A stretch of DNA of 64,000 bases from an uncultured Rivularia sp. GTDB taxonomy: Bacteria; Cyanobacteriota; Cyanobacteriia; Cyanobacteriales; Nostocaceae. Shown here piece by piece: positions 4,007-30,527 of this stretch. The DNA is taken from NCBI GenBank assembly GCA_963665115.1, contig OY762007.1, positions 6,624,001 to 6,688,000 of the forward strand. Direction: 5' to 3'. Each line of letters begins with the position of its first letter. Within the stretch, counting starts at the first letter, position 1. A program made the position numbers and the translations under genes. The notes beneath the pieces are model-generated. The model searched no databases, had not been told where the DNA came from, and was given only the letters and a program-made list of their open reading frames with translations.

Positions 4007-4054
4007 AAACTGTTAACTCAACATTGATAATTGATAACTGTTAATTGATAACTA

Positions 4055-25572: not shown

Positions 25573-28500
25573 ATGAGCATAAATCAGAAAAAAGCATCAA
25601 ATTCAAAAGCAAATCGCGCTTTACAATTATTTATTGACAGGCATCATTTAATCAAACATTTTGCAAAATATATTAATAATGAGCCAGTTACAGAGAAAAT
25701 TCTGTATTTTTATGGCGATGGTGGTAATGGTAAATCTTTGTTACTCAAGTATTTAAGGACAAAATGTTGCAATAGATTCGATCAAAAAATATGGCAGCAA
25801 ATAATACATCAAAAAGATTTTAAATTATTAGCTAGTGATATTGCAATTCCTAATAATAATGATTTTGTTCGAGTACCAGCAGTATTACATGATTTTGGCT
25901 CACCACCCATTGATGACGATAAACCCCAAGATTTATTTTATGGGTTGTTGATGTTACGCCGAAATATTGGTATTGAGGCGAATGACTCAAAATATAAGTT
26001 GAAATATAAGCTGCGTTTTCCTTTGTTTGATTTTGCTTGCGTTTGGTATCTGCATCAAAAGCATCAACTCTCAAAAGATAGATGGAAAGAACTTTTTCCC
26101 GAAGAAGAATTTGAATTTACCATGCAGATTGTTGATACTTTGAGTAACACATCTTGGGGACAAATTGCTGATGTGGTGCTTGATGTGTTGATGAAATATT
26201 CTGGTAAAAATCTCTACGTAATGTTTCAGCAGCGAAGGTTGACAAAAGAAAACATCGAAGAAATTCGGGATATGGATGTAGACACCGAATTAATTTTCCA
26301 GTTACCAAGATTGCTAGCTCAAGATTTAAATTCAGCAATGTCTGAGAAAGATTCACCTGAAAGACTTGTATTGTTTTTTGATACTCATGAGGCTTTTTGG
26401 GGTAGTCAGCGGGATGTTGGAGATTACCGCTATTTTCAACAAGATAAGTGGTTGCGGTATTTTTTGGCAGAGTTGGAATTTTCACATGGAATTATGGTTG
26501 TGGTTGCGGGAAGAGAAGTACCTCGTTGGCAAGATGCTGATGAATATGATATTCCCCAAAAGTTTTTGGATACCCAATTAGTAAATCATCTTGCAGAAAC
26601 TGATGCTCGCGAGTATCTACGCAGAGCGGGAATTAGCAACCGGGATTTTCAGCAGAATGCGATTGATTACTCTAGCGCTAGGGAAAATCAAGTTCATCCG
26701 TTTTTATTGGGTTTGTGTGCGGATGTGATTTTGCAGGGAAACCAGGGGTTAAACGAACTCGATCTTAATGCTGATTTTGCGGATAAAGCTAAACAATTAA
26801 TTAACCGTTTGCTGAAATATGCAGATAGAGAAATTAATTATGCGGTACAGGCTTTAAGTGCTTGTCGTGGTTTTAATTATGATATTTACGAATTGCTAGG
26901 AAAAGAATTAAAATTTAAAACTAGCAAGCCTAGCTTTAATATCCTGACAGAATTTTCCTTTGTTTGGGAAGCGCAACGGGGTGAAGATTGGTATCGTATT
27001 CATGATTTATTGCGACGGTTGAATTATGAGGAAGATAACCAAACTACCCGACAAGCTCATGAGGTATTAGAGAAATATTACCGCGAACAAGGGGAAATCG
27101 CAGAAGCAATTTATCATGCTAACCGTTTGGATTGGGAGCGGGGTATTGATGAATGGGTTAATGAGTTTGATGAAACATTAAAATTGAGTCGCTATGATGA
27201 ATGTCGCGTTTTATTGGAAATTAGAAATGAGTTAGTTATTCAAAGCGATTTTCAATTAGGTAGTGTCTCGCAGTCTGAAGGTGATTACTTCGCGACATTG
27301 GCTCAACATCAGCAAGCAGAAAAAGAATATTTAGAAGCCGTAGAATCCTACAACCAAGCACTTAATCGCGCTCCCGATGATATTTCTGCTCACAATAATA
27401 AAGGAAACGCTTTAGCAAGTTTAGGGGATTTACAAGCAGGTTTATCACAACATCAAGATGCGTTAAATTCCTACACCCAAGCGATCGCATCCTACGACGA
27501 AGCACTCAATCGCGCTCCCGATTATATAAATGCTCACAATAATAAAGGACTAGCTTTACAAAGTTTAGGGAATTTACAAGCAGGTTTATCACAGCATCAA
27601 GATGCGTTAAATTCCTACACCCAAGCGATCGCATCCTACGACGAAGTACTTAATCGCGCTCCCGATGATATAAATGCTCACAATAATAAAGGAATCGCTT
27701 TAAAAAGTTTAGGGGATTTACAAGCAGGTTTATCACAGCATCAAGATGCCTTAACTTCCTACACCCAAGCGATTCGCATCCTACGACGAAGCACTCAATC
27801 GCGCTCCCGATGATATTTATGCTCACAATAATAAAGGAAACGCTTTACTAAGGTTAGGGAATTTACAAGCAGGTTTATCACAGCATCAAGATGCGTTAAA
27901 TTCCTACACCGAAGCAATTGCATCCTACGACGAAGCACTTAATCGCGCTCCCGATTATATTTATGCTCACAATAATAAAGGACTAGCTTTACAAAGTTTA
28001 GGGGATTTACAAGCAGGTTTATCACAGCATCAAGATGCGTTAAATTCCTACACCCAAGCAATCGCATCCTACGACGAAGCACTCAATGGCGCTCCCGATG
28101 ATATTTATGCTCACAATAATAAAGGAAGCGCTTTAGCAACTTTAGGGGATTTACAAGCAGGTTTATCACAGCATCAAGATGCCTTAAATTCCTACACCGA
28201 AGCAATTGCATCCTACGACGAAGCACTTAATCGCGCTCCCGATTATATTTATGCTCACAATAATAAAGGACTAGCTTTACAAAGTTTAGGGGATTTACAA
28301 GCAGGTTTATCACAGCATCAAGATGCGTTAAATTCCTACACCCAAGCAATCGCATCCTACGACGAAGCACTCAATGGCGCTCCCGATGATATTTATGCTC
28401 ACAATAATAAAGGAAACGCTTTACAAAGATTAGGGGATTTACAAGCAGGTTTATCACAGCATCAAGATGCGTTAAATTCCTACACCCAAGCAATCGCATC

Positions 28501-29461
28501 CTACGACGAAGCACTCAATGGCGCTCCCGATGATATTTATGCTCACAATAATAAAGGACTAGCTTTACAAAGTTTAGGGGATTTACAAGCAGGTTTATCA
28601 CAGCATCAAGATGCCTTAACTTCCTACACCGAAGCAATTGCATCCTACAACCAAGCACTCAATCGCGCTCCTGATTATATTCAAATTCACAATAATAAAG
28701 GACTCGCTTTACTAAGTTTAGGGGATTTACAAGCAGGTTTATCACAGCATCAAGATGCCTTAACTTCCTACACCCAAGCAATTGCATCCTACGACGAAAT
28801 ACTCAATCGCGCTCCCGATCATATTTCTGCTCACGGTAATAAAGGAAACGCTTTACTAAGTTTAGGGGATTTACAAGCAGGTTTATCACAGCATCAAGAT
28901 GCCTTAACTTCCTACACCCAAGCGATCGCATCCTACAACCAAGCACTCAATCGCGCTCCCGATCATATTTCTGCTCACGGTAATAAAGGAAACGCTTTAC
29001 TAAGTTTAGGGGATTTACAAGCAGGTTTATCACAGCATCAAGATGCGTTAAATTCCTACACCCAAGCGATCGCATCCTACGACGAAGCACTCAATGGCGC
29101 TCCCGATTATATAAATGCTCACAATAATAAAGGACTTGCTTTAGCAAGTTTAGGGAAATTACAAGCAGGTTTATCACAGCATCAAGATGCCTTAAATTCC
29201 TACACCCAAGCGATCGCATCCTACAACCAAGCACTCAATCGCGCTGCCGATGATATTTATGCTCACAATAATAAAGGAGTCGCTTTAGCAAGTTTAGGGG
29301 AATTACAAGCAGGTTTATCCCAGCAAGAAGAAGCAATAAAAAACTACGAAGCAGCATTAGCAGAGTTTAATCTTTCGTTAGAAATTGCACCAAATGATGA
29401 AAAAGTTAGAAATATAAGAGATGAGTTGCAAGAATTATTAGATAGTCTCAAGTCAACTTAA
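25573..29461 (+). CDS. STAND/NLR-like P-loop ATPase with C-terminal TPR-like repeat array (about 1295 aa after removing a 1-bp insertion at about 27774)
   Basis: FIDR pre-P-loop, Walker A GDGGNGKS, Walker B VLFFDTHE, sensor VVAGR, HPFLL and RIHDLLR motifs. After the extra T the frame stays open through the repeats to TAA at 29459-29461. Confidence 0.85.
27345..29325 (+). repeat. 14 tandem 144-bp (48-aa) coding repeats
   Basis: The His codon recurs at 27391, 27535, 27679, 27824, 27968, 28112, 28256, 28400, 28544, 28688, 28832, 28976, 29120 and 29264. Confidence 0.97.
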
Positions 29462-29513
29462 AATACGAGATTATATTTATAGGTTGTTGTTGGGTAACAT
29501 ACGTCAACCCAAC

Positions 29514-29669
29514 CTACTGAAACTCTTCTAAATACAGTTCTGTCGCTTCTTTAAGATTACTAATAGCCTCTTCTACCGTTTCTCCTTGACTAGCTGTTCC
29601 TACTTCAGGACATTCAGCCACATACACATCTTCTTCCCAATAAATCACTGCGGTAAAAATTTTATTCAT
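29514..29669 (-). CDS. HicB-like (UPF0150) antitoxin, short, orphan
   Basis: Manual translation MNKIFTAVIYWEEDVYVAECPEVGTASQGETVEEAISNLKEATELYLEEFQ*; not in the ORF track. Confidence 0.8.
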   Translation of the reverse strand: MNKIFTAVIYWEEDVYVAECPEVGTASQGETVEEAISNLKEATELYLEEFQ

Positions 29670-29750
29670 TGCATTCTCAAATCGTTACGTATCGTCTCAG
29701 GCTTTATTTTCCGCTCTATAAACTTAATTTAGTAACTCTGTAAAATAGCT

Positions 29751-29966
29751 GTGCGGATATCAACCAAGTTACTAGAAATTAACCGCTCTATCCGTGACTT
29801 ATCCCTAGAAGAACAAATGTGGCTTTTAGAAAGTTTAGTCAAGAATTTGCGAAAGAAGACAAATACAAATTCTTTTCCATTAAATCAAGATATCGAAAAA
29901 GAAATGGCTGCAATGGCGAACGATAGTGATATTCAAGTTGAGATTGCTGCTATTGATGTTAATTGA
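29751..29966 (+). CDS. Small antitoxin-like protein, possibly truncated
   Basis: LSLEEQMWLLE and MAAMANDSDIQ resemble small cyanobacterial antitoxin-like proteins; no toxin follows. Confidence 0.5.
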   Translation: MRISTKLLEINRSIRDLSLEEQMWLLESLVKNLRKKTNTNSFPLNQDIEKEMAAMANDSDIQVEIAAIDVN

Positions 29967-29987
29967 TATTTTTAAAAATTACTGCAA

Positions 29988-30183
29988 TAAGGGACTTTTA
30001 AAAAATAATTTATCCTTCATAAGTAGTGCGTTAGCCGCACCTCCGGTGAACGCGCTTAGCGGAGCGTACCGTAGGTATTGCGTGTCCGTAAGGACATACA
30101 TTTTGCTCGCTGTATGTCTCAAGCGAGCAAGATGCTCGCACTACCTAATGTTTTCCGGAGATATCTAATTTGGAAATCCTTAA
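29988..30183. mobile_element. MITE-like element with nested small repeats (relative of 14798-15261)
   Basis: Shared left end; right end ggaaatccttaa; internal ttgctcgc...gcgagcaa stem and tccgtaagga units. Confidence 0.6.
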
Positions 30184-30189
30184 ATACTT

Positions 30190-30305
30190 ATACCGTTTCT
30201 TTATAAAGATGCGCTTAATTCAGCCCACGCAGGTGGGCTTTGTTTGGGTAGCCCCACTCTTCGAGAGTGAGGGTGATTTAGTGCAGCCTCATATAGAATT
30301 GGTAT
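30190..30305. mobile_element. 116-bp MITE, copy 2
   Basis: Colinear with 14856-14971. Confidence 0.8.
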
Positions 30306-30527
30306 TACACAAAATTAATAATTCCCGATAACTCCCACCCTTACCCACCATCTCTCTATAACCTCTTCCCTCAGCGCCCTCAGCGCCTCTGCGGTTATTT
30401 ATACCTAACTCCCCCAAACATTTCAGAATGTTGCAAAAACTACATTATGAGAATTTGTAACAAATAATAGTGGTAAATCTGAATACTTTTTACTATCTAT
30501 TAACTATAGAGCCAGGGAGATAAATTT

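Follow-up and report, generated by a model that had tools for sequence, protein, structure and literature searches.

A STAND ATPase gene with a mosaic array of 48-residue TPR units and excess amino-acid change at five unit positions in an uncultured Rivularia

Fungal nucleotide-binding oligomerization domain-like receptors (NLRs) with tetratricopeptide repeats (TPRs) show concerted evolution of their repeats, repeat-number variation and positively selected sites on the concave face of the array, whose units are mostly 42 amino acids (aa) long (PMC4986451). The same regime has been suggested for bacterial NLRs with high-identity repeats (10.1101/2020.01.06.895854), and a rapid turnover of the propellers of STAND-WD40 (WRAP) proteins, STAND denoting signal transduction ATPases with numerous domains, is described in cyanobacteria (PMC9218822). 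Known bacterial STAND sensors recognise conserved phage folds; repeat-shuffling specificity in bacteria has been suggested in print, and was not measured in the literature searched. Here, we describe a single gene at positions 25573-29461 of the forward strand of a 64,000-nucleotide (nt) stretch of the genome of an uncultured Rivularia sp. (contig OY762007.1, positions 6,624,001 to 6,688,000; hereafter the window). It encodes a STAND-type ATPase module followed by 14 repeat units of 144 nt (Table 1). With a probability of about 0.6, its product is a stand-alone NLR-like sensor of a foreign protein, in which a predicted STAND switch is joined to a likewise predicted TPR superhelix made of diversifying mosaic units. 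It is a STAND-TPR protein that, judged by its evolution, would work like a fungal-type reshuffling NLR sensor.

The open reading frame (ORF) called at this locus is 746 aa long (25573-27813) and runs into the tandem array, where a single surplus base near 27774-27775 cuts it short; the remaining 11 units lie in an open frame ending at 29461. Once the extra base is removed, the intact product would have 1295 aa, and collinear intact orthologues are found at the congeneric loci L018 (1055 aa) and L022 (768 aa). The ATPase part and the array are single-copy in the 8.69-Mb genome. Tandem Repeats Finder (TRF) gives the array a period of 144 with 13.8 copies, 91% matches and a score of 3190. Cutting at the conserved Ala-Pro-Asp codons delimits 14 units, which start at 27370, 27514, 27658, 27803 and so on to 29243, with a spacing of 144 nt except for unit 3 (145 nt). 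An initial annotation, made from the window's letters, had counted 14 units of 48 aa and noted that the ORF track omits 11 of them; the unit cutting and TRF confirm the first count, and the extra base in unit 3 accounts for the second.

Pairwise comparison of units 1-13 shows between 0 and 18 differences per 144 nt, with units 5 and 7 identical, and unit 14 resembles the scaffold up to about residue 27, beyond which lies a capping segment. The main variable sites of the unit are positions 4, 6, 13, 16 and 17 (also 9 and 20). The residues at sites 4-6-13-16/17 are D-S-N-AS, Y-N-L-QS, D-N-I-KS, D-Y-N-LR, Y-Y-L-QS, D-Y-S-AT and Y-Y-L-QS in units 1-7, and D-Y-N-QR, D-Y-L-QS, Y-Q-L-LS, H-S-N-LS, H-S-N-LS, Y-N-L-AS and D-Y-V-AS in units 8-14; all 14 five-residue codes agree with those first read. 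The near-invariant scaffold with multi-state changes at a few sites, also recognised at the outset, holds, with more variation besides: position 20 is likewise multi-state (D/N/K/E), positions 9, 33, 37, 43, 44 and 48 are two-state, position 45 is three-state, and positions 2 and 7 deviate in one unit each. The five to seven variable sites of the unit span 9-16 residue types, with Tyr, Leu, Ile and Val among them. Asn10 is retained in 148 of 151 units.

We analysed selection at sites taken from the arrays of other clades, in a leave-one-clade-out scheme that avoids circularity. Positions 4, 6, 13, 16 and 17 ranked top in 8 of 8 rounds. In the window, these five sites carry 16 amino-acid-changing steps on 12.2 sites versus 11 silent steps on 31.8 sites, which gives a ratio of amino-acid-changing to silent substitution rates (dN/dS) of 3.8 (p 0.0006); the remaining codons have a value of 0.43. 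Across 15 arrays, dN/dS at the five sites exceeds 1 in 11, with p <0.05 in 7. In the cyanobacterial genus g55 (14 of 16 matching genomes sampled, 13 genes parsed, 9 with at least 3 clean units), it exceeds 1 in 8 of 9 arrays, with p <0.05 in 6 of 9, arrays of kin not being statistically independent. The raised dN/dS at variable codons that had been proposed as a check is thus found in the window and in most of the arrays.

These data bear on the idea that the array was amplified recently and neutrally, and that the gene is dispensable and decaying, in which case its variable sites would be an unconstrained surface. Unconstrained sites predict a dN/dS near 1, not 3.8. Neutral simulations that modelled mutation, gene conversion and variable sites free of selection attained 16 steps in none of 990 runs matched for silent change (0/311 and 0/679). 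Synonymous change around the sites is not elevated (0.26 vs 0.35 per site), the nucleotide motifs are intact, and period 48 is the best period in 259 of 273 array-bearing homologues. The frameshift in the assembly, the internal deletions with differing ends at five congener loci, the frameshifts of L050 and the reported frequent decay of young repetitive propellers (PMC9218822) would suit such a gene. For the family, neutral decay is largely refuted, and we hold it very unlikely for the window gene. Two mutational sources of variation were rejected as well: local hypermutation is ruled out by the silent change not being elevated near the sites, and an origin from a diversity-generating retroelement by a best outside match of 32 of 46 invariant bases and changes that involve all four bases.

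Exchange between units is equally apparent. In units 1-13, the four-gamete test is violated by 67 of the 120 informative site pairs, with a minimum number of recombination events (Rm) of 7; failures concern 17% of near pairs and 61% of far pairs. The scaffold DNA distance is 0.05 within the window versus 0.30-0.41 to other genera, and the distance at the five variable codons within the window is 0.34. Judged from these patterns, the units are recombinant mosaics of one another. At the same locus in congeners, the array has 9 units (L018), 3 units (L022), 14 units (L050, frameshifted) or at least 5 units (L021), compared with 14 in the window, and assembly collapse could reduce some of the congener counts. 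These arrays share no unit order. Recombination between units and differing unit number and order in relatives, as initially expected, are both borne out. In addition, the Microcoleus-like proteins show 7 distinct code strings in 7 comparable cases. Two Nostoc arrays share much of their unit order, so that the shuffling regime is not universal. Overall, high identity with concerted evolution, repeat-number variation and positive selection occur together as in the fungal proteins, the face of the variable sites being assigned by alignment.

The model of units 4-14 has a predicted local distance difference test (pLDDT) score of 97 and shows two helices of about 20 residues per unit. Its best structural matches are LGN (Z 28.0, 323 residues aligned, root-mean-square deviation (rmsd) 3.3), Pins (27.9) and OGT (27.6). 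With Z of 24-28 against TPR proteins, and Pfam TPR matches too, the array belongs to the TPR superfamily. It is not made of canonical 34-residue TPRs: the unit is 48 aa long, and this excess, remarked on from the start, holds in nearly all array-bearing homologues. In the alignment with OGT repeats, unit sites 6, 9, 13, 16, 17 and 4 correspond to TPR positions 2, 5, 9, 12, 13 and 34. Seven hypervariable TPR positions, located on the concave face, are described in PMC1261162, and unit sites 4, 6, 9, 13, 16 and 17 cover six of them. Permutation shows the variability along helix A to be one-sided, with p 0.009 for the window and p 0.004 for other genera. The placement of variable residues on one helix-A face is thus borne out by periodicity and by alignment to TPR ligand positions. 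The initial annotation had named three outcomes as damaging to its reading, namely variable residues scattered or buried, dN/dS not elevated at their codons, or an identical array in diverged strains; none occurred, burial being judged by alignment rather than from coordinates.

Hence, the variable sites are predicted to line a concave groove around a ladder of Asn10 residues. Asn10 corresponds to TPR position 6 and aligns with the asparagines of the OGT repeats, under a numbering offset for the latter that we take to be correct. The OGT repeat asparagines grip the peptide backbone (PMC11440498). The LGN/Pins and OGT superhelices are thus the best fold matches, with the Asn10 column falling on the OGT asparagine ladder; compared with them, the window array has longer helices (about 20 residues), near-identical units and a fused STAND switch. 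The 48-residue unit, near-fixed in its scaffold, could offer a natural modular platform for binding peptides. A series of near-identical helical modules with a few variable residues might also call to mind the TALE- or PPR-like code to which the initial annotation loosely likened the array, in which each unit would read one nucleotide, and a designer PPR does appear at rank 24 of the fold matches (Z 18.5). Such a code is disfavoured because the units are net acidic: the charge is negative (-1 to -5) in 13 of 14. Moreover, the top fold matches are peptide-binding TPRs (Z 27-28), the unit has 48 aa, and five to seven sites vary without a fixed di-residue code, whereas TALE/PPR readers have units of 33-35 aa, a two-residue base code and a basic surface. 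The likeness to base-reading proteins was therefore not borne out, and we regard it as the most improbable of the alternatives considered.

The AlphaFold model of the first 520 residues (pLDDT 84.7) has the fold of a STAND module. The top Foldseek matches are CED-4 (E 1e-6), MalT in second place and Apaf-1. VIA matches comprise archaeal PAB2304 (Z 16.1, 324 residues aligned, rmsd 3.9), plant NLRs (Z 13.5-15.2), Avs3 (Z 11.1) and Avs5 (Z 10.4), with ORC/Cdc6 proteins ranking between, and residues 11-520 of the model align to NLRs and archaeal STANDs. Residues K54, D270 and R314, belonging to Walker A, Walker B and sensor-1, are invariant or nearly so. The VHP and RIHD motifs are also conserved; we take them to be GxP-like and MHD-like, respectively, in NB-ARC nomenclature. 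With its P-loop motifs and the helical and winged-helix domains seen in the model, the module qualifies as a STAND NTPase, and the STAND ATPase named in the initial annotation is borne out by fold matches and intact nucleotide motifs. At E 0.01, the window's module has no match in Pfam, NCBIfam or PADLOC (NB-ARC, NACHT, nSTAND1-6 and AAA_16 included), and a sequence search of the PDB with the ATPase module assigned no family. Among relatives, AAA_16 is weakly matched in 21 of 49 (best E 6.5e-6) and NB-ARC in 1 of 49.

No effector precedes the ATPase. The leader has 18 residues here, and in 327 of 331 homologues no more than 40 residues lie ahead of the ATPase; the absence of an effector, claimed for this gene at the outset, is thus a family trait. 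A conserved ATPase switch without an effector in almost all members is a puzzle in itself. As single cases, homologue P0222 has an N-terminal rhomboid domain, and P0281 and P0319 have a second STAND ATPase further along the chain; all three may be fusions or assembly artefacts. Within the module, the helical insert is a candidate output surface. Its hairpin 177-220 is moderately hydrophobic and of low model confidence; the best Atlas score for the insert, 0.76, is a lead only, and no match was usable. A transmembrane hairpin was considered and rejected, as the best 19-residue hydrophobicity in the window protein is 1.18 and the amphipathic moment is unexceptional.

In a sensor of this kind, a foreign protein would be bound in the TPR groove as an extended peptide, the Asn10 ladder being predicted to hold the peptide backbone while the variable residues read the side chains. 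By analogy with other STAND proteins, ligand binding would release the ADP-bound state and allow assembly of a ring. The oligomer would in turn pass the signal to a partner from another locus, for which a caspase-like CHAT protease is the most probable candidate. This output is the weakest step of the explanation. If the protein is a sensor, a partner in trans, such as a CHAT protease, that docks on either the insert or the ring seems by analogy with relatives slightly better than an even bet; that the insert hairpin is itself toxic is a possible but much less probable solution, and some other output is a little less probable still. 

The partner in trans is made plausible by the CHAT/DUF1822 and glycohydrolase associations of relatives. 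Six loci have a split form of the gene: the ATPase frame terminates beyond the helical arm, and a second, overlapping gene opens in the -1 frame at a shared ATG. A CHAT gene comes next in 5 of 6 (four by Pfam, L072 by clustering), and a Gloeothece plasmid carries ATPase, DUF1822 and CHAT genes in a row. In a quick tree, the split forms fall within a mainly cyanobacterial clade (support 99). Matches to CHAT number 46, and those to DUF1822 12, in the genome from which the window comes. A C-terminal ADP-ribosylglycohydrolase is fused to the same ATPase in 6 proteins. As further particulars of these relatives, the second gene of the split form has a purine-rich stretch upstream of its ATG and encodes one TPR and DUF1822 or another domain; split-form coordinates are L043:4587-9414, L045:377-7950, L057:7953-14111, L063:8001-12788, L072:6671-11431, L087:8968-16905 and L056:7965-10237, with a CHAT gene following at all of these except L056. 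The ADP-ribosylglycohydrolase sub-family (L074:7971-11537; P0299, P0300, P0311, P0323, P0331) has a different TPR region, and the fusion gene of L074 is preceded by a StiP/PELOTA gene and an FkbM methyltransferase gene.

Compared with described systems, the gene is closest in its evolution to the fungal NB-ARC/TPR NLRs (Podospora Pa_2_10340, HET-D/E family; PMC4986451), with which it shares a STAND module, a TPR array and the same regime. The fungal proteins have mostly 42-aa units and an N-terminal effector or prion-forming domain, whereas the window family has 48-aa units and neither domain; in addition, the window gene is single-copy, which leaves no paralogues to exchange with. The bacterial NLRs with high-identity repeats stand next to a Bell-domain or TIR-STAND partner (10.1101/2020.01.06.895854), whereas the window gene has no co-linear partner; no conserved co-linear Bell-type neighbour was seen that would make a BASS amyloid-signalling pair, in which the neighbour and the NLR N-terminus have a short motif in common, no search having been made with BASS profiles. 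The Avs antiviral STANDs (Avs1-21, PMC12803255) likewise join a STAND module to a TPR-like helical sensor, and Avs3 and Avs5 are among the fold matches; no Avs profile of PADLOC 2023, which predates later Avs families, matched. Avs proteins recognise conserved phage folds, whereas the window gene diversifies within species groups and has no effector and a weak link to defence islands. Because no effector is present, the protein is neither a tripartite NLR nor an Avs. PMC12803255 defines 589 STAND clades, and the window's ATPase clade may be among them. DUF1822 with EACC2-caspase genes has been predicted to form a conflict system (PMC8195603). The split relatives resemble it in preceding TPR-DUF1822 and CHAT genes, while the window locus has neither, and the accessible part of PMC8195603 places an ECF sigma factor rather than a STAND ATPase in these neighbourhoods. 

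No publication on the family or on 48-residue TPR units was found in the literature searched, subscription papers lying mostly outside the search, and the accessible parts of PMC7159879 and 10.1101/309039 hold nothing on the window's STAND-TPR family. What is new is an unannotated STAND clade, its 48-residue unit and the evidence of selection; the regime itself is known in fungal NLRs and suggested for bacteria. With one gene per genome, many alleles, five positions per unit and swappable units, the family makes the question of shuffling testable.

Among 1.84 billion representatives, 813 match the family at E 1e-30 or better, and they come from cyanobacteria, Acidobacteria, Chloroflexi, Poribacteria and other phyla; the adjective cyanobacterial in the initial annotation therefore did not stand as a description of its range. 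Among cyanobacterial genomes, 19 of 401 have a match, 16 of these from the single genus g55, and 10 of 26 congeners of the window's organism have one. Phage records gave no match, and three matches in viral contigs are confined to the Walker A region.

Several observations weigh against a sensor of foreign proteins. Four of the 15 arrays have no amino-acid excess at the five sites (dN/dS 0.28-0.89), and Symploca-type arrays have diverged with unit order kept. The groove was assigned from alignment and helical periodicity rather than from model coordinates. The CHAT-linked split loci have no array, so that the array is linked to CHAT by ATPase kinship only. No conserved co-linear partner is found in 66 loci, and from one genus to another the genes next to the array-bearing form are not conserved. 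PADLOC, run on the 134 nearest neighbours at 39 of the 66 loci, gave no hit at 28 and generic hits only at 6 (two kinases, RtcR, cyclase, TPR, Uma2); specific defence genes stand at 5 loci (type III CRISPR-Cas at L037, DISARM-like at L044, AbiEi, Gabija and cytosine methylase), and because there is no matched control, the link with defence is a weak enrichment at most. Most neighbours are housekeeping genes, and within lineages the gene has a fixed position beside such genes (e.g. minCDE, fmt, gdhA); in g55, 16 of 19 genomes have the gene, with one match each. In the assembly as it stands, the gene is frameshifted.

The fixed locus and the single match per genome would suit a non-immune STAND signalling protein with MalT-like logic, responding to a host partner or cue, with variable residues tuned per lineage rather than by conflict. 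Consistent with such a protein, MalT is the second Foldseek match, an effector is missing, unit order is kept with dN/dS of 0.28-0.37 in L033 and L035, and only 198 of 589 STAND clades are classed as defence-associated in PMC12803255. A constant partner would not, however, predict differing codes in close congeners or distinct codes in all seven Microcoleus-like proteins. Repeated loss, matches in only 19 of 401 cyanobacterial genomes and an ATPase part that evolves faster than its neighbours (dN/dS 0.29-0.42 vs 0.07-0.17) also argue against it, and no DNA-binding output domain is seen. We consider it unlikely, if the least unlikely of the alternatives.

A fixed locus with many alleles is also what a sensor for self versus non-self might show, one that would detect proteins of other filaments or neighbouring microbes, delivered by contact or secretion, and not phage proteins. 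The regime resembles that of the fungal TPR NLRs (PMC4986451). No polymorphic partner gene was found, and carriers occur in unrelated phyla. The named cyanobacterial carriers are mostly genera that we take, from general knowledge, to be filamentous or colonial. Nothing separates this alternative from anti-phage sensing, and mechanistically it is a sub-case of the foreign-protein sensor; as a separate explanation, it is rather improbable.

The foreign-protein sensor can be drawn more boldly, as a sensor-only NLR family: a single-copy receptor in which 48-residue modules would be shuffled and selected so as to change its specificity within a species group, each unit reading one short peptide segment, and which would signal through the helical insert to a caspase-like protease encoded elsewhere. 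In this full form the proposal is tentative and, on balance, doubtful. If true, it would mean recombination-driven, antibody-like recognition in multicellular bacteria, possibly of self versus non-self.

As for the extra base in unit 3, three sequencing runs from a single study contain 0.74-0.83 of the gene's words, with the same unit alleles; runs with a small share of these words, among them the one RNA run (0.10), were left aside. Among the contigs listed that span the break, 11 of 11 lack one base and none is gap-free; these are contigs rather than reads, and the 11 may derive from other units. A true single-copy insertion would be expected to yield a gap-free spanning contig of about 61 nt. 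The extra base is thus probably an assembly error. In run X1, a low-depth contig (16.7 vs about 190-240) at window positions 28106-28170 has new residues at sites 16 and 20, which could point to a second strain or a minor variant, or could be erroneous.

Table 1. Coordinates of the gene, its parts and its downstream neighbours in the window.
Feature	Position	Strand	Basis or remark
Whole gene: STAND ATPase module and 14-unit TPR-like array	25573..29461	+	1295 aa if the extra base is an error; collinear orthologues
Short N-terminal leader, residues 1-18, without effector domain	25573..25626	+	pLDDT <50 for residues 1-11; homologue comparison
Nucleotide-binding domain, about residues 19-340, including FIDR motif	25627..26592	+	Near-invariant columns, AlphaFold model, fold matches
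Walker A GDGGNGKS	25714-25737	+	
Walker B LFFDTHE	26371-26391	+	
Sensor-1 VAGR	26503-26514	+	
Helical insert of about 150 residues (108-260)	25894..26352	+	Between strand 2 and Walker B, AlphaFold model
Helical domain with VHP and winged-helix domain ending in RIHD, residues 342-486	26596..27030	+	Model, conservation
Helical arm and first degenerate TPR hairpin, residues 490-599	27040..27369	+	Model; Pfam TPR matches from residue 572
Array, 14 units of 48 aa; helix A 5-24, helix B 28-48	27370..29386	+	TRF, unit cutting, model
Extra frame-shifting base in unit 3, probably an assembly error	27774..27775	+	Contigs of sequencing runs
C-terminal capping helix and stop codon	29387..29461	+	Helix 533-551 of array model; cap common to homologues
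Neighbour: 51-aa HicB-like antitoxin fragment	29514..29669	-	Weak Pfam matches below cut-off; also in L022, L080
Neighbour: 71-aa antitoxin-like ORF	29751..29966	+	PemK/MazF gene follows counterpart in L080, not in window

The gene directly upstream of the STAND gene is divergent. Downstream, the gap at window positions 29462-30527 and its counterpart in congeners form a small hotspot that collects toxin-antitoxin genes: a PemK/MazF gene in L080, a MazF-like pair in L106 (judged by eye) and an AAA_15 ATPase with DUF3226 in L022. In g55, PIN-like small genes, also judged by eye, lie in the downstream gap. The antitoxin-like ORF was rejected as a family partner, as it occurs in 2 other loci only, both of congeners, plus the tail of one protein.

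At L037:1-16300, the family member has a cas10 operon on one side and cas1/cas2 with a CRISPR array on the other, and immediately follows an AAA_33-WCX gene. At L044:1602-11099, it lies 83 bp downstream of same-strand helicase, DrmB-like and PLD genes (DISARM-like), and is followed by a CapP-like gene and a sigma factor gene.

Elsewhere in the genome, there are other high-identity coding arrays, with units of 40, 42 and 32 residues, some with a few multi-state positions (G000:C1:118775-120073, 4700719-4701462, 8485617-8486439, 7204322-7205590, 3090155-3092141 and 3134196-3135942). A control comparison of 15 repeat arrays of the genome, with sites picked post hoc, misframed 5 of them, the window array included, and gave an unreliable value for one; it carries no weight in the selection analysis. 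The array at G000:C1:118775-120073 is inside a 1365-aa ORF with a CHAT match. Intergenic tandem repeats of 7 nt are typical of heterocyst-forming cyanobacteria, and many are found in the window between positions 4023 and 58074.

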